From a virus (lineage: Duplodnaviria > Heunggongvirae > Uroviricota > Caudoviricetes): 21,928 bases of DNA. Below the pieces are notes generated by a model. The model ran no database searches and was not told where the DNA came from. It saw nothing but the letters and a program-made list of their open reading frames with translations. The DNA is taken from the IMG/VR virus record IMGVR_UViG_2651869749_000015; one strand, written 5' to 3'. Each line of letters begins with the position of its first letter. Within the stretch, counting starts at the first letter, position 1. The position numbers were made by a program, and so were the translations under genes. Of the stretch, positions 1,881 to 12,279 are shown one piece after another.

Positions 1881-1908
1881 GCGCCTTGAATGCAAGGCGC
1901 TATTTATC
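1881..1908. terminator. GC-rich hairpin between the convergent 3' ends of int and the cargo operon (possible terminator)
   Basis: GCGCCTT-gaatgc-AAGGCGC (7 bp stem, 6 nt loop) at 1881-1900, followed by TATTTAT on the + strand. The T-run is weak on the minus strand, so strand assignment is uncertain. Confidence 0.3.
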
Positions 1909-2401
1909 AAGATAGTCTATTCAGATCAGTATTAGGTGTGCTTCTTTTTGATGCAAAGATGGATTTGAATCTTTTTGAGTAACTATCAAAAAACCATTTT
2001 GTATAATTACCTTCAATTTCCTCTAATATTGAATACTTCATCTCATGAAGTTCATTTTTATAATCACACTTTTTGCTTAACAAGTCTAAAGGTGTTGATC
2101 TGATAGATGACAACTGTTCATCACATAATAATTTCTTACCAATCCTTTGTGATAAATGAGACAGCTGCATTTCAATTAATGAGACACTGGAGGCTAAAAA
2201 ATTATCCAGCTCTAATTCTTTAGTATCTCTAGAAGAGAGCTTATCTAAAACATTATCAAAAAGAGATTCTATTTGCTGACAGATTTTATCCTTTTGCCTT
2301 GAAATATCATTTCGCTTGAATGCTCTATTATTGAAATAAGACGCAACAAGCCAACCAATTATAGCAATCACAATACTTGTATAATTAACCTCTTCCTGCA
2401 T
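1907..2401 (-). CDS. Small single-pass membrane protein of unknown function (third gene of the cargo operon; candidate effector)
   Basis: ORF with ATG at 2401 (GTG at 2404 one codon upstream). Hydrophobic helix YTSIVIAIIGWLVASYF near the N-terminus, followed by a polar, charged region. Its start overlaps the stop of the upstream gene by 17 nt. Low GC. Confidence 0.6.
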   Translation of the reverse strand: MQEEVNYTSIVIAIIGWLVASYFNNRAFKRNDISRQKDKICQQIESLFDNVLDKLSSRDTKELELDNFLASSVSLIEMQLSHLSQRIGKKLLCDEQLSSIRSTPLDLLSKKCDYKNELHEMKYSILEEIEGNYTKWFFDSYSKRFKSIFASKRSTPNTDLNRLS

Positions 2402-2717
2402 CACTCTCTGCCTTATTCAATCGTTCATCAATCAAGGTCTCAATACTCTTAATATCTTTATGAGTATAAGTTAGTTTTTTCTTAAGTTCGCTTAATGTGT
2501 AGCCTTCTACTCGGATCAAGCCACCAAACGCTTCATCAATAAATGAACGCCCATAACGGTTATATCCAGTCAACTCAACATGAACTAAATCATACTCTTT
2601 GAGAAAGCCTGCCAGATATTTGCGAAAGTTTTCCCCACAGCCTGCCCCATCGTCTGGATAGCGCCCGTAAGGCTTACTGTTGAAGTCTTTGATAACATTG
2701 ATGTTTTTAGTCTTCAT
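2385..2717 (-). CDS. Small STAS-like protein (DUF4325-type, anti-sigma-antagonist-like fold) - putative partner of the adjacent kinase
   Basis: 110 aa. The segment DLVHVELTGYNRYGRSFIDEAFGGLIRVEG matches the pattern I recall for DUF4325/STAS-like proteins (V-x-L-D/E-F/L-x-G-V, then SF-x-DE-x-F-G-x-L). Its ATG overlaps the stop of the upstream ATPase gene (2707-2717). Assignment is from memory, not an HMM hit. Confidence 0.6.
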   Translation of the reverse strand: MKTKNINVIKDFNSKPYGRYPDDGAGCGENFRKYLAGFLKEYDLVHVELTGYNRYGRSFIDEAFGGLIRVEGYTLSELKKKLTYTHKDIKSIETLIDERLNKAESDAGRG

Positions 2718-3816
2718 AGCTGACCTTGATGTTCCACTGAATTAAAGTACCTGGTACTTTATGAGTTAACTCATTAATTTTATCACCTTTCTTATTAGAA
2801 AGCTTGAACATACCTAAATTACTGTAAATCCAAAGGTTTCCATGTTCATTATTTAGTACTAGAGCTTTAATACTCTTACTTCCTTGACCATGTTTATCAT
2901 TGGCTGTACCGGTTACGTCTCCAATCATAGAAATTGCTATTTTTACTGCATCAGAAACAATACCAACTTTTACTTTAGAGCGCTCTTTATAACCTAAACC
3001 TATTCTCTCAAGTTCTTCGTTAACCGCAACCTTTAGATCTGGATATTTTGATTTGAGCGTACTCATAAACCATGTCTTTTGCATTACAGTTTCAGGTATA
3101 CCAACACCTTCATCATATATAGCAAGATACAGCTGGTCATGAATTACGTGACATGCAAGCCACCATCGTTTCTCATCATTATTTTTATGCGGATAGGCGT
3201 GTAAACCAACATTATTTATTGCTTCCTGAACAGCATCTGCATATGTATGTTCTGTTTCAGGTTTCATCTTGTTTTTATAAATTTCTTTCTGGATGAAATC
3301 TATAATCTCATCTCTATATTCTCCTCCTACCCCGCTAATAATGGGCAAGTTTTCAACGTTTTCGAAGACAGGTTTTAATTTTTCGCCCCGACATAAGGCG
3401 ACAAGCCCCGAGTCTCTTAAAAGCTGATTGACTTTAAAATCTGTTGAAAATAATAATCTGTACGATAAACCTTTACGAATTGAAGTTTCAACACTGGCAT
3501 AAAGTATTACTAATGCTGCCATTTTTATTGTTTTTGTATTTGTAAAATCTAAATATAATCTCTCATCAGGATTGTATTTTTTATTCCTGACGTGATTTAT
3601 CGAGTGTAGAGAGTGCGCAAAAAAATTAGGCTTATCTGGTGAATATATTGAAAACTCAGATGGAAACCGAATAAAGTTATTATCTTTTTTCTTTTGAGAT
3701 TTTTTTTGTTGACGAAACTGCGAATACTCTTTCCCTTGACGGGAAACACTTCGCTGCCATCTTTTAAAAGCCAGCCTAATTCTTACACTTTTTTCCTTAT
3801 TGGTCTTGTTTTCCAT
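2707..3816 (-). CDS. GHKL-superfamily ATPase / RsbW-SpoIIAB-like serine kinase domain protein with a basic N-terminal tail
   Basis: 369 aa. Bergerat-fold motifs in the C-terminal half: N-box QEAINNVGLHAY (residues ~197-208), G1 box IYDEGVGIP (D235-G239; confirmed as gatgaaggtgttggt on the minus strand at 3100-3114), G2-like RIGLGY, and C-terminal GTLIQWNIKV. Start ATG at 3816 is preceded by SD AGGAGA. First ~45 residues are very K/R/Q-rich. Confidence 0.75.
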   Translation of the reverse strand: MENKTNKEKSVRIRLAFKRWQRSVSRQGKEYSQFRQQKKSQKKKDNNFIRFPSEFSIYSPDKPNFFAHSLHSINHVRNKKYNPDERLYLDFTNTKTIKMAALVILYASVETSIRKGLSYRLLFSTDFKVNQLLRDSGLVALCRGEKLKPVFENVENLPIISGVGGEYRDEIIDFIQKEIYKNKMKPETEHTYADAVQEAINNVGLHAYPHKNNDEKRWWLACHVIHDQLYLAIYDEGVGIPETVMQKTWFMSTLKSKYPDLKVAVNEELERIGLGYKERSKVKVGIVSDAVKIAISMIGDVTGTANDKHGQGSKSIKALVLNNEHGNLWIYSNLGMFKLSNKKGDKINELTHKVPGTLIQWNIKVSYED

Positions 3817-4563: not shown

Positions 4564-4758
4564 CTACTCAATAATTCCAGCAAATCTGTATATCTTGTGT
4601 GATGCCCATTTATTTGGGCAGGATTTAATATCCGGATCTGGAAACTCAGGCCTGTATTTCTGGCCAGTTCTCCTGTTTACGCTGTTCCAGCGAAGAACGG
4701 TCGATACTGAAACGCCACAGAAGTCGGCGACTTGTTTAGTTGTCATTAAGTTGTTCAT
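4564..4758 (-). CDS. Excisionase-like / AlpA-family small HTH DNA-binding protein
   Basis: 64 aa, MNNLMTTKQVADFCGVSVSTVLRWNSVNRRTGQ... with a helix-turn-helix. It is the last gene of the leftward operon, on the integrase side of the prophage. Confidence 0.55.
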   Translation of the reverse strand: MNNLMTTKQVADFCGVSVSTVLRWNSVNRRTGQKYRPEFPDPDIKSCPNKWASHKIYRFAGIIE

Positions 4759-5930
4759 TACTTCACCTCCTGCGGCGGTTCCGGTAGCGGCATCCAGTGG
4801 GTTACTTTCGATGCCGGTTCTTCCCCATTGTCAGTAACTGCCCACCATTTGTTTCTCGACCAATCGTAATACCCTTCGAAGGTATCGCACTCAGTCCAGC
4901 CGTAAGACTTACCCCAACACCAAACATACTGTTTATCGTTCGGCATTCGCTCACTACAGCTTATCCAACCATCCGGAGTTACCGGAGAGTTGCCATTCAC
5001 AAGGTCAGCTCGAACATATAGCGTGTCATCATGGTGCTGATTGTGGCTGCACCACGTTAATTCGCTTAACTCGCCATCTTCTGGCCATACTCCAGCTGTT
5101 TGCAGCCAGATATGGGCTGGCGCATCTTGGCAAGGTGTATTAACTGGCAACTTGTAAGTTTGGCTTACAGGTTGGCTACCCTGAAGCATGGCCGCGCGGC
5201 AGGCATTCCACCCCTTCACATAACCGAACGCCATCAACTGATCATTCATGGCGGGCAGCATTGTGTGGGTCGTACTGATTTCCTCCGGCACTACTGGCGA
5301 TGGCTGTTTGGCTTCTAAATCAGCAATTCTGTCAACTACGGCATCGACAGCATCTGAAAAACTGAAACAGTTACTCCACTCCGGCCAGTTCCCGGTTGCT
5401 GCAAAGTACATATCTGCTAAAGCAGATTCAGCATGGTCACGCTCGTTAATGAGTTGCTCTTCGCTTTTCTCCAGTTCAGCAATACGCTTCTCTGCGGCTT
5501 CTGCCCTGCATTGTTCCCGTTGGAACATTTTGTGGGTGCGGTCGAGCGCCTCAAGTCTGGCTGCTGATGTTTTCTCTTCTGCTTCAAGCTCAACGCGCAG
5601 CTTCCCAACCGTAAGCGCAATATCCTCGTTCTCCTGGTCGCGGGATTTGATGTATTGCTGGTTTCTTTCCCGTTCATCCAGTAGTGCCAGCGCAACATTT
5701 GGATTAAAAGCAGCAATAAATTCAGCGTTTGCATAAGCCTGAACATCTGTTTCAATCAGGCAGTTAACATGACATTCCGCAATCACGCCACCGGGTTCTC
5801 CTTTCCATTTTTGACAAACAAAAACTCCTGTTAAATTGCCGTGTTGGTTAACAGATGTATGCCCTACGATGTAGCTTCCTTTAGTTGCTTTCTCTGCCTT
5901 TTCACGCAGTGCCTGATAGTCAATTGTCAT
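4758..5930 (-). CDS. Ea22-like early protein with C-terminal DUF551-like domain
   Basis: Coiled-coil-like acidic middle region and a C-terminal W/C-rich segment ending VTHWMPLPEPP. Probable start is the ATG at 5930, which overlaps the upstream stop as ATGA and has AAGG upstream; the long ORF starts at 5939. Confidence 0.55.
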   Translation of the reverse strand: MTIDYQALREKAEKATKGSYIVGHTSVNQHGNLTGVFVCQKWKGEPGGVIAECHVNCLIETDVQAYANAEFIAAFNPNVALALLDERERNQQYIKSRDQENEDIALTVGKLRVELEAEEKTSAARLEALDRTHKMFQREQCRAEAAEKRIAELEKSEEQLINERDHAESALADMYFAATGNWPEWSNCFSFSDAVDAVVDRIADLEAKQPSPVVPEEISTTHTMLPAMNDQLMAFGYVKGWNACRAAMLQGSQPVSQTYKLPVNTPCQDAPAHIWLQTAGVWPEDGELSELTWCSHNQHHDDTLYVRADLVNGNSPVTPDGWISCSERMPNDKQYVWCWGKSYGWTECDTFEGYYDWSRNKWWAVTDNGEEPASKVTHWMPLPEPPQEVK

Positions 5931-6571
5931 TCTCGCCATCCTTCACAGTTGTAATCACTACAGCCTTCAAAATCATATGGGTTGTACTGCCAGGTGATTT
6001 TTCCGCAATGCGGACAATTCCAACGCACCTTCCCGCTTCGCGACTTCTTTCTTCTGTTCTGCTTTTTCAACCAGTCAGGCATGACCAAACCTGCGCCCTG
6101 AACCATTGTTCTGCGGTTAAAGTTATTGATATTGAACGTCCGGCGCTTTGCTGAATCAGCAATGGAAAATGGCAACCAAACTATTCCTGGTTCGTTTTTG
6201 TTGGCGACGCTAAAGATGGTCGCTTTACTGAAGTCATCTGTTGGCAATCCACCGTGTTGAAGCCAGTAAACATCGTTGCCGTTCCAGCTACTTTTTTTGT
6301 AGGCCACATACGCAGTGCAATCTGGCTCAATCAGGTTTTCTGTAGGGATGTACTGGTAATCAACGTGCCACACAGCCATTGCATCCACGCTATCAGCGCA
6401 AACAGGCTGATCGATATCTCGACCACAATTCCAGGCTTTTTGGGCTTCTTCCAGCGTGTAAACATGAGCGCGATCGATATTAGAACTGTAACCATTGCCG
6501 TTATGGCAATGGAATGAAGCGTTATTACCCACAGTTTCACGCAAGCACATCATGTAAAAGCGGTTATTCAC
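5927..6571 (-). CDS. Phage early protein with C-terminal zinc-ribbon (CPHCG...C..C); YfdT-like position
   Basis: ORF 5927-6604. Probable true start is GTG at 6571, preceded by AGGAGG with a 6 nt spacer and overlapping the upstream TGA as GTGA. C-terminal CxxC...CxxC motif. Confidence 0.5.
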   Translation of the reverse strand: MNNRFYMMCLRETVGNNASFHCHNGNGYSSNIDRAHVYTLEEAQKAWNCGRDIDQPVCADSVDAMAVWHVDYQYIPTENLIEPDCTAYVAYKKSSWNGNDVYWLQHGGLPTDDFSKATIFSVANKNEPGIVWLPFSIADSAKRRTFNINNFNRRTMVQGAGLVMPDWLKKQNRRKKSRSGKVRWNCPHCGKITWQYNPYDFEGCSDYNCEGWRE

Positions 6572-6918
6572 TGGTTGCCTCCTTTGCGAATCTGTTCCGC
6601 CCATTCTTCAAGGGATTTCTCCGCATATTCACCGGACAGACCATCAATCGGGTGCGGTTCATTAGCCAACTCATCTTTCGCTGACAGAATCATGCGTGTA
6701 ACGTCGAAAACTTCACGTAAAGACTTATTGATAAATCCGTGATTGAACGCAGCAGCAAGGCGGCTTGCGGTATAGTTAATACCCTCGTTGCGAGCCTCAG
6801 CACGTACTTCATCGAATTTACGCACCAGATACTCAGCATTTGTTTCATTCACTTTCAGATCTCGCGGTACACATTTCCCGCGAAGAAACCCTTCCATTTC
6901 GAAAACATTCATGCGCAT
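6568..6918 (-). CDS. Hypothetical early-left operon protein (YfdS-like position)
   Basis: 116 aa ORF with GGAG 9 nt upstream of the ATG at 6918. Start overlaps the upstream gene stop. Confidence 0.55.
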   Translation of the reverse strand: MRMNVFEMEGFLRGKCVPRDLKVNETNAEYLVRKFDEVRAEARNEGINYTASRLAAAFNHGFINKSLREVFDVTRMILSAKDELANEPHPIDGLSGEYAEKSLEEWAEQIRKGGNQ

Positions 6919-7445
6919 TTGCGTAACTCCGATAACTCGTTAAAACGTTCCATAAACATCCCGTAGGCATGGCCCGGTGCCAGTGGAATCACGTTGAACA
7001 TCTCTGTTGCCGGGATGCCTTCCAGTACAGGCCAGAAAGAGCCATCATCAAGCCCGAGATCGCGGCGTTCGGTTGCCAGCATGATGAGATCGGCATATTT
7101 CACGGGCGTACTCATAACCGGGGGTAACCCGTATTTCTCACGGATTACGGCGTCTATTTTTTCTTCCATCTGTTTATAGTCAGGAAGAAGGCGTTTCAGT
7201 GGAGCGGGGATGTCCTGGCAATACGCTTCTGTTGCATCATGCATTAACGCTTCAAAAGCAAATTCCTGCGGTACCAGCTGGCTGCAAAGAACCGCATGTT
7301 GGGCGACGCTGTAGAAGTGCGAAAGATGACCGGCAAAGCGACAGATATTTGAAAGGGAAACCGCGATATCGTTAATATCGATGTCGTCTTTATTTATCCT
7401 GTCATAATAAAAATGCTTACCGGAAAAAGTTTTAATAAATGACAT
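6909..7445 (-). CDS. yfdR: HD-domain phosphohydrolase (YfdR-like 5'-deoxynucleotidase family)
   Basis: H...HD metal-binding motif (SVAQHAVL ... ALMHDATEAY). The 178 aa product from the ATG at 7445 (MSFIKTFSGKHFYYD..., GGAG 8 nt upstream) matches my recollection of CPS-53 YfdR; the six-frame ORF extends 9 codons further to 7472. Confidence 0.7.
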   Translation of the reverse strand: MSFIKTFSGKHFYYDRINKDDIDINDIAVSLSNICRFAGHLSHFYSVAQHAVLCSQLVPQEFAFEALMHDATEAYCQDIPAPLKRLLPDYKQMEEKIDAVIREKYGLPPVMSTPVKYADLIMLATERRDLGLDDGSFWPVLEGIPATEMFNVIPLAPGHAYGMFMERFNELSELRKCA

Positions 7446-7572
7446 TTTGTTCTCCACGTATATGCGCTGCACCGCGCTGAATTCTGGTAAAAGGAAGCCC
7501 TCACCATCCGGCGATTATTGAGTTAATTACGTTTCCATAAATGCCCCCGCAGGGGCATTTGCAGTAATGAAA

Positions 7573-8397
7573 TCAGGCGGTGAAAGTACCAATAAAGGTT
7601 TCTACTTTGCTGTCTTTGAATTTCTCAACAAGCAGATCACGAAATTCGTTAGCCATTTCTTCCTGCACTGCTTCCAGCTGAATAATGCGCAGAACCAGTA
7701 CAGGACGATCGCCAGTGATAATGCTGAGGCGTAATTTAAATGGACGTTCTTTCAGACCTTCAAACGGAACGCATTTAAATTCAAATGCCACTGGCATAAT
7801 ATCTTTGGTCTTCGCTTCGACAGACTCCATCAGGGAGCGTTTGCCGCTGAAGTCATTATCTTCAAAATCAGCGGTCTGGTTTGCTTCAATCGTGATTTTA
7901 CGGACAGCCGCAGCCGCTTTTGTTGCCTGAATAGCGTCACCATTAGCATCAAAGCCCACAAGGTAGTCGGCCCAGTCTTCAATCCATTCTGCCAGTGACT
8001 TCTGGGAGTTACGCTCGCCATTAACAGACAACAGAGCAGAAAACGGTGCTGTCTTTTTTAGCTTGAGAGTGGCGGTGTTATCTGCGTGACCTGGTTCATC
8101 AATAGTACCCAGGTTAAGCACACTGACGGCACGCATATTATCGGCATCGATAAAGCAGCGGGTGCCTTCATCTGCAAGATCTTTAGAATAACGGGTAAAG
8201 TCATCGATGCTGGCAGTGGAAAGCGCACCACGGAAACGGAAGCGATTTAAATTAAATTTTTCCAGATCATGAATGCGGAAATTCTCAGGCAATGCCACAG
8301 CATCGGCACCAATCTTACTGATAATTTCATTAACACCCTGAGCAGAAATAAGGGCATGGATTTGATTAATTGCGGTTGCGTCTAAGTTCTGAGACAT
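7573..8397 (-). CDS. yfdQ: DUF2303-family phage protein (YfdQ-like)
   Basis: 274 aa [24 protein letters not shown]..., which I recognise as the YfdQ-type protein of KplE1/CPS-53-like prophages (from memory). It sits in the conserved position between the YfdP-like and YfdR-like genes. Confidence 0.7.
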
Positions 8398-8461
8398 AAT
8401 AAGTCCTCACTATATAAAGATATTCAGTGATGAGATAAATAATCAGTTTATTAATAACGTA

Positions 8462-8824
8462 TTAATGACCTGCTGCGCGGAGTTTTCCGTCAGGTTCACC
8501 GGCAAGAGTCAGTAATTGTCCCTGGTCTTCCTGCAGAATAGTCAGGCGACCACCGCGATTGACATACATCGGCGTTTCGGTGGTGTCTTCTTCGGAAATT
8601 TTCCCGCGGTTAGTCGGGCGAACATATGAGAGTTTGTGTTTGATTTTCACACGGTTCTCATCAAATGGTTCGATTTCCAGGTTGAGTGAGACCTTACCTT
8701 TGGTTTTCGTGTTCATCACACCTGAAGCGACTTCACTGAGAACTGCGCCGATTTTGGTTTCAAATACGCCGCCGTCCAGCTCCCCGATAAATGCCTGCAC
8801 ATCAGTACTGCGTTCGCTAGCCAT
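8462..8824 (-). CDS. yfdP: Small early-left operon protein (YfdP-like), first gene of the leftward operon
   Basis: The six-frame ORF runs to 9055, but its first 77 codons are low-complexity. A 120 aa product starts at the ATG at 8824 (MASERSTDVQAFIGELDGG...) with a strong SD GAGGAG 6 nt upstream. Confidence 0.6.
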   Translation of the reverse strand: MASERSTDVQAFIGELDGGVFETKIGAVLSEVASGVMNTKTKGKVSLNLEIEPFDENRVKIKHKLSYVRPTNRGKISEEDTTETPMYVNRGGRLTILQEDQGQLLTLAGEPDGKLRAAGH

Positions 8825-9432
8825 TTTGCTGCTCCTCATCATATCGACCCTGCAAGGTCGGTTGGTTTCTCCACAAAACAGAGAAGAACACCTGCGGTGG
8901 CAGCCGCCCGGGTGGATTGGGTTATGAGCCCGTCGTCCGGTGATGCTCTTCTCTGTTTTGTAAAAAGAGCGGTACCAGCCGGAAGCAAGTGTACAAACTG
9001 GTACCGCCAAAGCAGTGGCTGTTGTGGTGGGCTTGTCACTTAAGCGTATGGTCAACCTGACAACCCGGTGTCCTCAACGGGGAAGGAATAACCCCGCCAT
9101 ACTTACCGCCGCGCCATTTCGCGGATTACCACAACGCTGAGAGCACTTAGCCAGTTACGGCACCACACTTTGTCGCGGTTCCATAAATGCCCTCATCGTT
9201 GCACCCTGGTCTCTTCCCAGGCGTCAAACCGAATCGCCACGCTGGTTAGGCGTCTTATCAGCATCCTCATTGACTTGCACATTCCGGCTACCTGGTTTGT
9301 TTGCCCGAGCAAGGAGTGGATTGTCCCCTTTAACGTCCCCAGACCGCTAACGACGCATGTGCCATACGCCGTGTTACAACCAAATTTTGTTAGTACCTTG
9401 TTTGTAGGTCTGGAAAGAAAGATAAAATGAAG

Positions 9433-9471
9433 TTGCGCATTATGCAAGTGTTTTTATTGCGAGATATGCAA
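9433..9471 (-). promoter_or_regulatory. Putative left operator/promoter (oL-pL): two 15-bp TTGCG-N6-GCAA palindrome-like sites
   Basis: TTGCGCATTATGCAA (9433-9447) and TTGCGAGATATGCAA (9457-9471) share half-sites with TTGCGCGTTAAGCAA (10241-10255) on the other side of cI. Confidence 0.4.
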
Positions 9472-9527: not shown

Positions 9528-10220
9528 TTAATTGTGTCGCTTAAGGGTTTGTGACTGACTGATTAAGACCTTTCCAAAGACCATAAACCGATGTTCGTTT
9601 TCGCTGGTAATTCCCCATTCGCGGTAAATCTGATTATCAGAAATTACCAGCAGTTTATCAGGTATCATTTGCAGTCGTTTGACGTAAATTTTATCATCAA
9701 AACCAAATACATATATACCATCCCCATCAAACTGATTGATACTGATATCAACGAAGATGAGATCTCCTGGCTCAATGGTTGGACACATACTGTCCCCACG
9801 AACGTTGATAACTTTAATGTGATTTGCTGGTCGTCCACCAAACATCGATACAGCATTATCAGTTCTGTATTCAATGGCATGAATCACATCAATGACATCA
9901 CCGCCCTGGATAAGGCCATTTCCCGCACTGGCACTGACATCCAGCATTTCAATACGGAATACATCCTTCACCTGCGCAACATCCTCACTAATACTGTTTT
10001 TACATACAGTATTACTTTTGAGGTCTGAGGTAAAGAGATCAGCAATATCAACACCTAAGCTCCTGGCAATATTACTCAGGGCTTGTTCAGTGAATTGTTT
10101 CTGCTTACCTGTTTCGAGGCGCGAGATATTCGCCGCATCCACTCCTATTGCTTCAGCGAGATCGGCGATTTTCATGTTCTTCGCCTGGCGAAGTTGTCTG
10201 ACTCGATTTCCTATGTTCAT
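9528..10220 (-). CDS. cI: CI-type prophage repressor, LexA-like autocleavable (N-terminal HTH plus C-terminal S24 peptidase domain)
   Basis: 230 aa. HTH in MKIADLAEAIGVDAANISRLETGK; A-G cleavage-site-like SASAGNG; Ser nucleophile in VRGDSMCPT and Lys in IYVKRLQ. Divergent to cro. Confidence 0.9.
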   Translation of the reverse strand: MNIGNRVRQLRQAKNMKIADLAEAIGVDAANISRLETGKQKQFTEQALSNIARSLGVDIADLFTSDLKSNTVCKNSISEDVAQVKDVFRIEMLDVSASAGNGLIQGGDVIDVIHAIEYRTDNAVSMFGGRPANHIKVINVRGDSMCPTIEPGDLIFVDISINQFDGDGIYVFGFDDKIYVKRLQMIPDKLLVISDNQIYREWGITSENEHRFMVFGKVLISQSQTLKRHN

Positions 10221-10317
10221 GCGTTTATTACATTTCTTTATTGCGCGTTAAGCAAATCAACTTGCGCAAAATATTTGCGTGAAATAATATGCTCATCACG
10301 CAATATGTGGAGGTTAT
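10221..10317. promoter_or_regulatory. Immunity-region divergent promoter/operator (oR with pR and pRM-like elements)
   Basis: Operator-like TTGCGCGTTAAGCAA at 10241-10255 and near-palindrome CGCAAAATATTTGCG at 10265-10279. Candidate pR: TTGCGC (10262-10267), 17 nt, TAATAT (10285-10290), then SD GGAGG and the cro start. On the minus strand a TTGCTT-17 nt-TGTAAT arrangement ends 6 nt before the cI ATG, which would give a near-leaderless cI transcript. Confidence 0.45.
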
Positions 10318-10578
10318 ATGCAATCACCATTACGGAATGTGCGTAAGGCGCACGGATTTACTTTGCAGCATGTTGCTGCGGGCGTTCAGGTCAATCCAGC
10401 GACGCTGAGTCGTATTGAAAGACTGGAACAAATTCCATCTATCGAGCTTGCAGAACGTCTGGCCAATTTTTTTAAGGGAGAAATCAGCGAAATGCAGATT
10501 CTCTATCCTGCACGCTTTCAATCTAGTCAAAACCGGAATGAGTTAAAACCACAGGAACAGGAGGTAAGCCGTGGGTAA
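10318..10578 (+). CDS. cro: Cro-like HTH transcriptional regulator
   Basis: 86 aa, XRE-type HTH (FTLQHVAAGVQVNPATLSRIERLEQ). GGAGG SD. Divergent from cI across the operator region. Confidence 0.8.
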   Translation: MQSPLRNVRKAHGFTLQHVAAGVQVNPATLSRIERLEQIPSIELAERLANFFKGEISEMQILYPARFQSSQNRNELKPQEQEVSRG

Positions 10579-11122
10579 GCATCACTGGAAAGTGGAAAAA
10601 CAGCCTGAGTGGTACGTGAAAGCTGTCAGAAAAACTATCGCGGTGTTGCCGGGGGGTTACGCTGAAGCTGCTGAGTGGCTGGATGTAACAGAGAACGCTT
10701 TATTCAACCGCCTTCGTGCCGATGGCGATCAGTTTTTTCCGTTGGGATGGGCAATGGTTTTACAGCGTGCGGCTGGTACTCACCACATTGCGGATGCTGT
10801 CGCACAGTCTGCTGGTGGGGTGTTTGTATCACTTCCAGAAATTGAGGAAGTAGAGAACGCCGATATAAACCAGCGCCTGCTGGAAGTCATCGAACAGATC
10901 GGGAGTTACTCAAAGCAGATTCGTTCGGCAATCGAAGATGGGGTAGTGGAGCCACACGAGCAGACAGCAATTAATGATGAGTTGTATCTGTCAATTTCGA
11001 AGCTCCAGGAGCATGCAGCACTGGTCTACAAAATCTTCTGCGCTCCAGAAAAGAGTAACGCCCGCGAGTGTGCAGCTCCGGGCGTCGTGGCGTTTTGTGT
11101 CTGTGGAGAAACTAACGCATGA
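10571..11122 (+). CDS. CII-like regulatory protein (phage 186 CII / CP76-like family)
   Basis: 183 aa. GTG start with AGGAGG upstream, overlapping the cro stop. The pattern ...ALFNRLRADGDQFFPLGWAMVLQRAAG... resembles the 186-CII/CP76-type regulators as I recall them. Confidence 0.5.
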   Translation: MGKHHWKVEKQPEWYVKAVRKTIAVLPGGYAEAAEWLDVTENALFNRLRADGDQFFPLGWAMVLQRAAGTHHIADAVAQSAGGVFVSLPEIEEVENADINQRLLEVIEQIGSYSKQIRSAIEDGVVEPHEQTAINDELYLSISKLQEHAALVYKIFCAPEKSNARECAAPGVVAFCVCGETNA

Positions 11123-12279
11123 ACAGTTTAACGGCAAATAACCGTTTGTCGCAACAGCTGGTGGTCAGTGTCGCTGCACACCTGTTGTTACGGCATGAAT
11201 GCAGATTACCAAATCACCTGGCTGTAAGTAACCACAGAGAACTTTACCTGACTGTGGGGGGCGAGTTGTGCAGGAACTTAACCGCTGGTTTCGTGACGGA
11301 AGAGGACTTTATGTTCATGTTATTCGTTGGGAGCCAGAAACACAGCGCGTTATCTATCTTCGCAAAGACTACCCGCATGAGTGCTTTAGTCCTTTGTGGA
11401 AATTCAGGCGTGATTTTGTTGAGTGTGAAGGACCACCAGCATATTGATTCTGCAATTCCGGGACGTTACACTGTTCAGGCACCTTATAAAGCGGGTGCCG
11501 GGATTGGCGTCCTGAAATTGTCAACGGCGATGTATGACGCGCCAGCGTCTTTTTTATCGTCCGCATTTGCTCACATCCAGATTATGGTGGGCTGGGCGGG
11601 GGCACCGAAAGGTGCGCCGGTCTCCGTTGACGCCGGTTACGCCAACCCCGTCCAGTTCACCACCAGTGAAATTGGCGTTTCCGGTGGTGGAAGTTTTTCA
11701 CTGTCAACGGAGGCTGCCATCATGGCTACGATCCAAGCCCTCACTCAACCTGAAATCACCATTGACAACGGCCAGGCCGTTACCACTTCTTTGGCTGTTG
11801 CCAACTTCTTCTCCAAGCGTCACGACGATGTGCTGAAAAAGATCCGCACTCTGGATTGTTCCCCTGAGTTTTGTGCCCGCAATTTTGCGGAGACATCGAT
11901 TTCGGTAAATCAACCGAACGGTGGTACACGCAAGCTCCCTTGCTATCAAATCACACGAGACGGTTTTGCGTTTCTTGCTATGGGTTTCACGGGTAAACGT
12001 GCTGCCCGATTCAAAGAGGCATACATCAATGCCTTTAACCAGATGGAAAAACTGCTTTCAAAGCCATCCACGCTGAGCGATGCCGCAGATAACGCCAGCG
12101 TGCTTTACTCCCACCTGTCGGTAATCCACAAGGTCTGGCTGCAGCAGCTTTATCCTATGTTGGCAAAAGCTGAATCTCCGCTGGCTGTTAGCTTATATGA
12201 TTATATTAATGATGCTTCGGCGCTGGCCTGCCTCATAAATTTGTCGCTGAACCCTTCAGAGGTAAGGGGGCGCAAATGA
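11119..12279 (+). CDS. Rha-family phage regulatory protein (Rha domain in the C-terminal half; N-terminal ~200 codons of the long ORF are doubtful)
   Basis: The pRha signature ITIDNGQAVTTSLAVANFFSKRHDDVLKKIRTL...YQITRDGFAFLAMGFTGKRAARFKEAYINAFNQMEKLL starts at an internal ATG at 11722 with GGAGG 9 nt upstream. The upstream part of the 386-codon ORF has an off-frame-like composition (see findings). Confidence 0.6.
   Translation: MNSLTANNRLSQQLVVSVAAHLLLRHECRLPNHLAVSNHRELYLTVGGELCRNLTAGFVTEEDFMFMLFVGSQKHSALSIFAKTTRMSALVLCGNSGVILLSVKDHQHIDSAIPGRYTVQAPYKAGAGIGVLKLSTAMYDAPASFLSSAFAHIQIMVGWAGAPKGAPVSVDAGYANPVQFTTSEIGVSGGGSFSLSTEAAIMATIQALTQPEITIDNGQAVTTSLAVANFFSKRHDDVLKKIRTLDCSPEFCARNFAETSISVNQPNGGTRKLPCYQITRDGFAFLAMGFTGKRAARFKEAYINAFNQMEKLLSKPSTLSDAADNASVLYSHLSVIHKVWLQQLYPMLAKAESPLAVSLYDYINDASALACLINLSLNPSEVRGRK

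Follow-up and report, generated by a model that had tools for sequence, protein, structure and literature searches.

In Escherichia coli K-12 the CPS-53 (KpLE1) genes yfdQRST were isolated as a multicopy suppressor of hda-185 (Noguchi & Katayama 2016; PMC4776307). The minimal suppressor set comprised yfdQ and yfdR together with either yfdS or yfdT, with yfdP being dispensable, and in multicopy this set blocks initiation at oriC in vivo. Extracts oversupplied with YfdQRST likewise inhibit oriC replication in vitro, while purified YfdR binds specifically to DnaA through domains I-II, in a Phe46-dependent manner, and competes moderately with DiaA and DnaB for the Phe46 site (PMC4776307). The yfdR/Q/P cluster has also been considered in lambdoid phages, where a role as a hidden recombination system was judged unlikely (Zheng et al. 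2025; PMC12315714). Here we analyse the corresponding genes in IMG/VR record IMGVR_UViG_2651869749_000015, a stretch of 21,928 nucleotides (nt; hereafter the window) that presents a 21.9-kb part of a lambdoid prophage, the only part visible. Judged by their sequences, the two genes that occupy positions 6909-8397 are orthologues of K-12 CPS-53 yfdQ and yfdR, and they lie inside an apparently intact lambdoid prophage.

In the list of open reading frames (ORFs) the interval is filled exactly by two minus-strand genes: yfdR (6909-7445), coding for a predicted HD-domain phosphohydrolase of 178 amino acids (aa) that is annotated in RefSeq as a 5'-deoxynucleotidase, and yfdQ (7573-8397), coding for a 274-aa DUF2303 protein. 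On the same strand, directly upstream of yfdQ, is yfdP (8462-8824; 120 aa). The yfdR start was placed at an ATG (7445) that is preceded, 8 nt upstream, by GGAG; the alternative GTG at 7472, taken from the mechanical ORF list, was rejected because this Shine-Dalgarno sequence, the RefSeq annotation and the length of the K-12 protein all fit the ATG. A preliminary description of this DNA, made from its letters without database searches, had placed an HD hydrolase beside a DUF2303-type protein in the early-left operon and had proposed comparison with K-12 YfdQ/YfdR. This picture is borne out by the ORFs themselves, by the match of YfdQ to PF10065 (DUF2303; 309.7 bits against a gathering score of 26.6, E=2e-92, covering positions 2-269 of the 269 in the profile), and by the HD residues and PHROG match of YfdR considered below. 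Alignment to the CPS-53 proteins gave 174 identical residues of 178 for YfdR (98%, gap-free and over the full length), 272 of 274 for YfdQ (99%) and 119 of 120 for YfdP (99%). At the DNA level the identity to CPS-53 is 97.3% across 2033 nt (window 8843-6812), and gene order and spacers are alike. CPS-53, however, has lost its immunity region and carries yfdS-yfdT-torI downstream, whereas homology with the window ends 107 nt into yfdS and the window belongs to what looks like a complete prophage, in which CI/Cro, replication, Q and lysis genes are present. The explanation that we consider somewhat better than evenly balanced is that the locus is a CPS-53-type yfdQ/yfdR region composed of two units, in which YfdR acts on host initiation, on deoxyribonucleoside monophosphates (dNMPs), or on both.

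Alignment to PDB 2gz4 and to YfbR, the chromosomal 5'-deoxynucleotidase of E. coli (PDB 2paq), reveals an H...HD...D motif in YfdR (H49, H69-D70 and D119) together with E73 and D78; by analogy with YfbR these residues are taken to be metal ligands. The H...HD motif pointed out in the preliminary description is thus real, and HD relatives were found on profile and PDB sequence searches. Atu1052 (PDB 2gz4), the nearest solved relative, aligns over residues 19-175 (E=3e-14) with the VAQH, HDAxE...D and K-x-AD motifs kept, while the match to phrog_318, 'deoxyribonucleoside 5' monophosphate phosphatase' (E=2.7e-110), is in our view decisive for the predicted family. No Pfam HD family matched YfdR above its curated threshold, with both PF12917 (YfbR-like; 25.0 bits versus a cut-off of 25.9, E=1.7e-5) and HD_3 (17.3 versus 22.5 bits) falling just under; these scores represent a gap in Pfam coverage and are no argument against the HD fold. 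YfbR has the HD fold class, the HD..E....D core and the K-x-A-D motif in common with YfdR, but the two proteins are only 21% identical and YfdR scores 20.4 bits against the cut-off of 122 for the NCBIfam YfbR equivalog NF003009. Orthology of YfdR with YfbR was therefore rejected. YfdR is best described as a predicted HD phosphohydrolase, metal-dependent and with its H...HD...D ligands intact; low-affinity dNMP phosphatase activity has been reported for the K-12 protein, and the RefSeq annotation agrees with the earlier description of YfdR as a 5'-deoxynucleotidase. In the main rival explanation YfdR is a nucleotide-pool enzyme only, acting on dNMPs or non-canonical nucleotides during lytic growth, its binding to DnaA is incidental, and YfdQ is unrelated and merely adjacent. 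The intact catalytic residues, and the annotation and clustering of the family as dNMP phosphatases, are in line with such a role.

The distribution of the three genes bears on both explanations. Linkage was followed in 80 species-representative genome loci and in nine distant phages identified by tblastn against annotated phages, in which YfdQ is 26-59% identical (Citrobacter, Escherichia ArgO145, Thalassomonas, three Vibrio, Halomonas, Xanthomonas and Acinetobacter); a scan of viral contigs with a YfdQ alignment yielded only loci that were 99-100% identical and was uninformative. A YfdP homologue was located upstream of yfdQ in all 79 genome loci with enough sequence, with a spacer of 21-167 nt, and just upstream in all nine distant phages, one of which has a 66-aa ORF between the two. 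The window conforms to the membership rule for yfdQ derived here, YfdP directly upstream, with a gap of 64 nt. YfdR, in contrast, was encoded within 3 kb downstream of yfdQ in 56 of 77 genome loci and downstream in a single distant phage (phiNP), the others having genes for SSB, DUF1351 proteins or unknowns in this position; it was not found in any of the eight genome loci in which YfdQ is at most 46% identical (from Marinobacter, Photobacterium, Hahella, Kistimonas and Pontibacterium). YfdQ occurs in 184 phage records, led by Escherichia and Shiga toxin (Stx)-converting phages and followed by those of Vibrio and Xanthomonas, while the YfdR family occurs in 324, including many lytic or jumbo phages of Bacillus, Caulobacter, Rhizobium, Stenotrophomonas and Pseudomonas. 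Thus, of the 'pair' that had been proposed for YfdQ and YfdR the adjacency stands but the conserved unit does not, since yfdP is the constant partner and yfdR the variable one. Next to yfdQ, yfdR is an Enterobacterales add-on, and it occurs alone in many other phages. Both the presence of YfdR without YfdQ in lytic and jumbo phages and its absence beside YfdQ in eight of the nine distant phages favour the view that it is an enzyme and nothing else. Fusions of parts of YfdQ with YfdR, or of YfdP with YfdQ, exist in a small number of database proteins (P0122, P0137, P0011, P0073 and P0280), an example being a protein of 250 aa that matches PF10065 and yet is 99% identical to YfdR; each of these fusions is single or rare, and they most likely arose by deletions or frameshifts in decaying prophages.

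The junctions between the genes are also uneven. The yfdP stop and the yfdQ start are separated by 64 nt (8461-8398) and the yfdQ stop and the yfdR start by 127 nt (7572-7446), the latter gap containing a conserved hairpin. Overlaps are confined to four minus-strand junctions downstream of yfdR: yfdR with a yfdS-like ORF (6918-6909; ATGCGCATGA, 10 nt), this ORF with a 214-aa gene (6571-6568; GTGA), the 214-aa gene with an Ea22-DUF551 gene (5930-5927; ATGA), and the latter with xis (4760-4756; TAATG). Contrary to the statement that ATGA/GTGA overlaps chain the whole operon, yfdP, yfdQ and yfdR are thus not linked in this way. The stem-loop (7539-7560, minus strand) begins 12 nt past the yfdQ stop, reads AAATGCCCC-TGCG-GGGGCATTT followed by ATGG, and forms in both the minimum free energy and the centroid structures. 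It was found in 22 loci, which represent about 20 genera and in which the structure is kept as the sequence drifts. In an alignment of 21 sequences pairing holds in 96.2% of cells, and both sides have changed in five of the nine pairs, whereas none of 500 shuffles matched the observed value and slid controls reached at most 55%. As its T tract is short, and the terminator scan, with its strict T-run rule, does not accept the hairpin, we describe it only as terminator-like; it closes the yfdP-yfdQ unit and would be either a partial terminator or a stabiliser. Its position is consistent with the K-12 literature, which handles yfdPQ as one operon (PMC9181523). Constant linkage of YfdP, variable linkage of YfdR, a covarying hairpin after yfdQ and this K-12 usage lead us to read the locus as two juxtaposed units, with yfdP-yfdQ as unit 1 and yfdR onward as unit 2. 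In Enterobacteriaceae the remainder of the yfdQ-yfdR spacer (7446-7538, minus strand) contains one or two more small hairpins that recur across genera (loci L093-L170), such as CGCC-loop-GGYG and, immediately ahead of the yfdR Shine-Dalgarno sequence, GCGC-GGTGCAG-CGCG.

Within this two-unit reading the operon would be transcribed early, from PL, upon induction, and YfdR would act on the DNA-precursor and replication-initiation machinery of the host. By occupying DnaA domain I it could dampen new rounds of initiation at oriC, and it could also, or instead, hydrolyse dNMPs, with YfdQ and a downstream protein assisting; recombination would not be supplied by the yfd genes but obtained from host RecBCD via many Chi sites. 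We infer that in a live phage YfdR may interfere with host initiation, trim dNMP pools, or both, and the earlier phrase 'host-takeover or nucleotide-pool module' is a reasonable hypothesis. The statements on which that phrase drew, that YfdR binds DnaA and that overexpression of yfdQRST hampers replication initiation, agree with the published work, which places the contact in DnaA domain I (PMC4776307). Several points, however, weigh against this explanation. In K-12 the initiation block appeared only when the genes were in multicopy or overproduced; strains deleted for yfdQRST showed no phenotype, and an artefact of overexpression could not be excluded by the authors (PMC4776307). YfdQ, YfdS and YfdT bind neither DnaA nor YfdR stably (PMC4776307), and the contribution of YfdQ is therefore without a mechanism. 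YfdR's affinities for nucleotides are reported to be far below those that YfbR shows (PMC4776307), so the physiological substrate is uncertain. As YfdR relatives occur in phages of hosts with a very different DnaA domain I, their distribution argues that the ancestral role was enzymatic and not DnaA binding. DnaA binding and dNMP phosphatase activity are both known only from work on the K-12 protein.

It should be emphasized, moreover, that the published inhibitory gene set is incomplete at this locus. The members yfdQ and yfdR are both present, but YfdT has no tblastn match in the window and yfdS is chimeric. BLASTP and tblastn show K-12 YfdS to be conserved for residues 1-41 only; the yfdS-like ORF (6568-6918, minus strand; 116 aa) matches phrog_583 over residues 1-42 and phrog_614 over 36-116, and its residues past 41 belong to other phage families and not to K-12 YfdS. 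Since the block requires yfdS or yfdT, the K-12 phenotype is not transferable to this locus without a test. Indeed, the replication-inhibition result cannot be assumed for any locus that lacks yfdS and yfdT.

The absence of a replication phenotype on yfdQRST deletion is also what would be expected if YfdR were simply an enzyme. Against that view stand four of the K-12 results: the specific, Phe46-dependent binding of purified YfdR to DnaA, the inhibition of oriC replication by YfdQRST-oversupplied extracts, the requirement for yfdQ in addition to yfdR in the suppression of hda-185, and the low nucleotide affinity of YfdR (PMC4776307). We thus consider a nucleotide-pool function alone to be possible but doubtful, and retain the reading in which YfdR also touches host initiation.

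YfdQ and YfdP offer fewer leads. They match phrog_210 and phrog_204, respectively, with YfdP also assigned to PF27127 in the precomputed annotation. The sole solved relative of YfdQ is PDB 9o7m, a 36-chain entry entitled 'YfdQ Protein' (profile E=3.5e-57), whose sequence is 95-99% identical to those of the Tabio/Usme/MET23-P3 group of Xanthomonas/Xylella phages, from which yfdR is absent. The 36-chain deposition suggests that this YfdQ homologue is a large homo-oligomer. YfdP has no solved relative in the PDB and is not part of 9o7m; structure searches with YfdQ and YfdP returned no informative fold relative or functional lead, and a literature search found no paper on 9O7M or on the function of PF10065 or DUF2303. 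It is conceivable, although we would put it clearly on the unlikely side, that the yfdP-yfdQ cassette (phrog_204 and phrog_210), with its own hairpin and a large YfdQ assembly, is an uncharacterised replication or host-takeover machine, and that Enterobacterales recruited YfdR to it as a DnaA-directed effector.

A further possibility is that yfdP-yfdQ(-yfdR) constitutes an unrecognised recombination or replication-restart module standing in for lambda Red. The early-left position is typical of recombination (Rec) modules and the phage has no Rec genes: Pfam and PHROG searches of every left-operon ORF (4564-9055) gave no match of the exo/bet/gam/RecT/Erf, annealing, exonuclease or Gam/Abc2 type, and RusA and a DUF968/HNH protein are encoded in the right operon only. 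In addition, YfdP-YfdQ adjoin SSB, DnaQ-like exonuclease or DUF1351 genes in other phages, the 36 chains of 9o7m recall ring- or filament-forming annealing proteins, and deletion of yfdQ was reported to cause weak sensitivity to methyl methanesulfonate (PMC4776307). The need for recombination, however, is already explained by Chi. The window contains 15 Chi sites (GCTGGTGG), compared with 0.64 expected from shuffles, and none of 100 shuffles reached 15; all lie in the rightward arm between 10811 and 20689, 11 of them on the plus strand, and none is left of 10811. With Rec genes absent and Chi enriched, the prophage falls into the lambdoid class described as 'no Rec module, high Chi' by Zheng et al. 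2025 (PMC12315714). Furthermore, ArgO145 has YfdP-YfdQ in addition to a full gam/recT/exo/ssb set, and the yfd cluster is therefore no substitute for exo/bet/gam. Of the suggestion that the yfd genes are carried instead of that set, the absence of lambda-type Rec genes holds and the replacement role does not. On grounds of the ArgO145 type Zheng et al. 2025 (PMC12315714) had also rejected a recombination function. According to these authors ArgO145 has the yfdR/Q/P cluster; in contrast, only YfdP and YfdQ were detectable in our analysis, the 147-aa gene that follows yfdQ (L084 5899-6342) having no YfdR or HD match by phmmer, tblastn or Pfam. A cryptic recombination role is unlikely, and a module that stands in for Red very improbable.

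The early-left operons of temperate phages often hold accessory genes, such as those for anti-defence or superinfection exclusion, and the cluster might serve one of these purposes and have no replication or nucleotide function. Its accessory position, and the lack of an assigned function for YfdP and YfdQ, are compatible with this. No PADLOC defence model, however, matches YfdP, YfdQ, YfdR or their neighbours, fold searches give no relative among known inhibitors, and the genes are not sporadic but very common, and strongly conserved. Nothing positive speaks in favour of such a role, which we hold to be very improbable. YfdR acting on host initiation or dNMPs from a CPS-53-type locus remains the reading that we prefer.

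The wider organization of the window is that of a lambdoid prophage. The integrase gene (386-1609) is followed by three low-GC cargo genes (1907-3816, minus strand) that separate it from xis, and yfdP-Q-R lie on the leftward strand between the CI repressor gene and the xis/int end. Besides yfdR, unit 2 comprises, on the same strand, the chimeric yfdS-like ORF and genes for a 214-aa zinc-ribbon protein (5927-6571), an Ea22/DUF551 protein (4758-5939) and a xis-like helix-turn-helix (HTH) protein (4564-4758). The immunity region consists of a gene for an S24/HTH CI-type repressor (9528-10220, minus strand) and a Cro-like gene (10318-10578), and the right arm carries CII-like, Rha/Ash, replication, Dam, RusA, KilA-N, DUF968, Q antiterminator, methylase, lysozyme and Rz genes. 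The terminator scan identified a terminator-like hairpin after cI (9506-9489, minus strand), just downstream of which are two exact operator-like palindromes (9433-9471), TTGCGCATTATGCAA and TTGCGAGATATGCAA, placed 24 nt apart; their motif recurs at 10241-10255, between cI and cro. The promoter scan resolved no PL promoter, only these operator-like palindromes. Because they match the cI-cro motif and lie below the cI terminator, we infer that 9433-9471 is the left operator and promoter (OL/PL) region, which would drive CI-controlled leftward transcription into yfdP-Q-R. Some 600 nt between this region and yfdP (8825-9430, minus strand) contain no assigned gene, other annotators giving small hypothetical ORFs. 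Just upstream of yfdP is an inverted repeat with 25-nt arms (8873-8897 and 8937-8961; 84% complementary) followed by TTTTGT, where the left operon could have a nut or terminator region. In the right operon Rfam models identify isrK (11479-11555, plus strand; 62 bits) and C4 antisense RNA (11580-11667, plus strand; 81 bits) inside the 5' part of a Rha/Ash-family ORF (11119-12279), a P1/P7-type C4-controlled antirepressor arrangement. Of the three proteins encoded by the low-GC cassette (32-37%), one has 369 aa and is labelled 'ATP-binding' in one RefSeq record, another is a STAS-like DUF4325 protein of 110 aa, and the third has 165 aa. Only six of 5426 E. coli genomes contain the cassette, no PADLOC model matched it, and a close relative of the prophage has a dGTPase-family gene in the slot that the cassette takes here. 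The cassette may be uncharacterised defence cargo.

In comparison with described systems the locus is real but ordinary: yfdQ and yfdR are already described, annotated and very common. With a 2.2-kb query, near-identical DNA was found in 3232 of 5426 complete E. coli genomes (about 60%), annotated as yfdP, yfdQ and yfdR, and closely related DNA in 559 phage records, mostly of Stx-converting and other lambdoid phages. One of these, the inducible phage phiSTEC1575-Stx2k, also has the same immunity region. LLS (gp37-39), ST64B (sb35-37) and phiNP, termed the 'LLS functional type' by Zheng et al. 2025, carry the three-gene cluster in the same position as here and, like the window, combine many Chi sites with the lack of a Rec module; the window proteins are about 57-68% identical to theirs and 97-100% identical to those of Stx2c, Stx2a, cdtI, SfIV and Ayreon-type phages. 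The discovery value is accordingly small, these genes having been named, annotated and discussed in the lambdoid-phage literature of 2016 and 2025. What this study adds is that yfdP-yfdQ form an evolutionarily fixed unit and yfdR a separable enzyme, and that inducible carriers of the exact module (Stx2k, Stx2c, SfIV, cdtI and Ayreon) make its role in phage directly testable. Among proteins that act on DnaA, DiaA and DnaB bind the Phe46 site of domain I as YfdR does, with no sequence relationship to it, and B. subtilis SirA likewise acts on DnaA and is unrelated in sequence. Lambda P provides a phage precedent for inhibition of host initiation through DnaA but, unlike YfdR, binds domain III. 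In contrast with these other DnaA-acting proteins, the effect of YfdR is moderate and requires helper genes.

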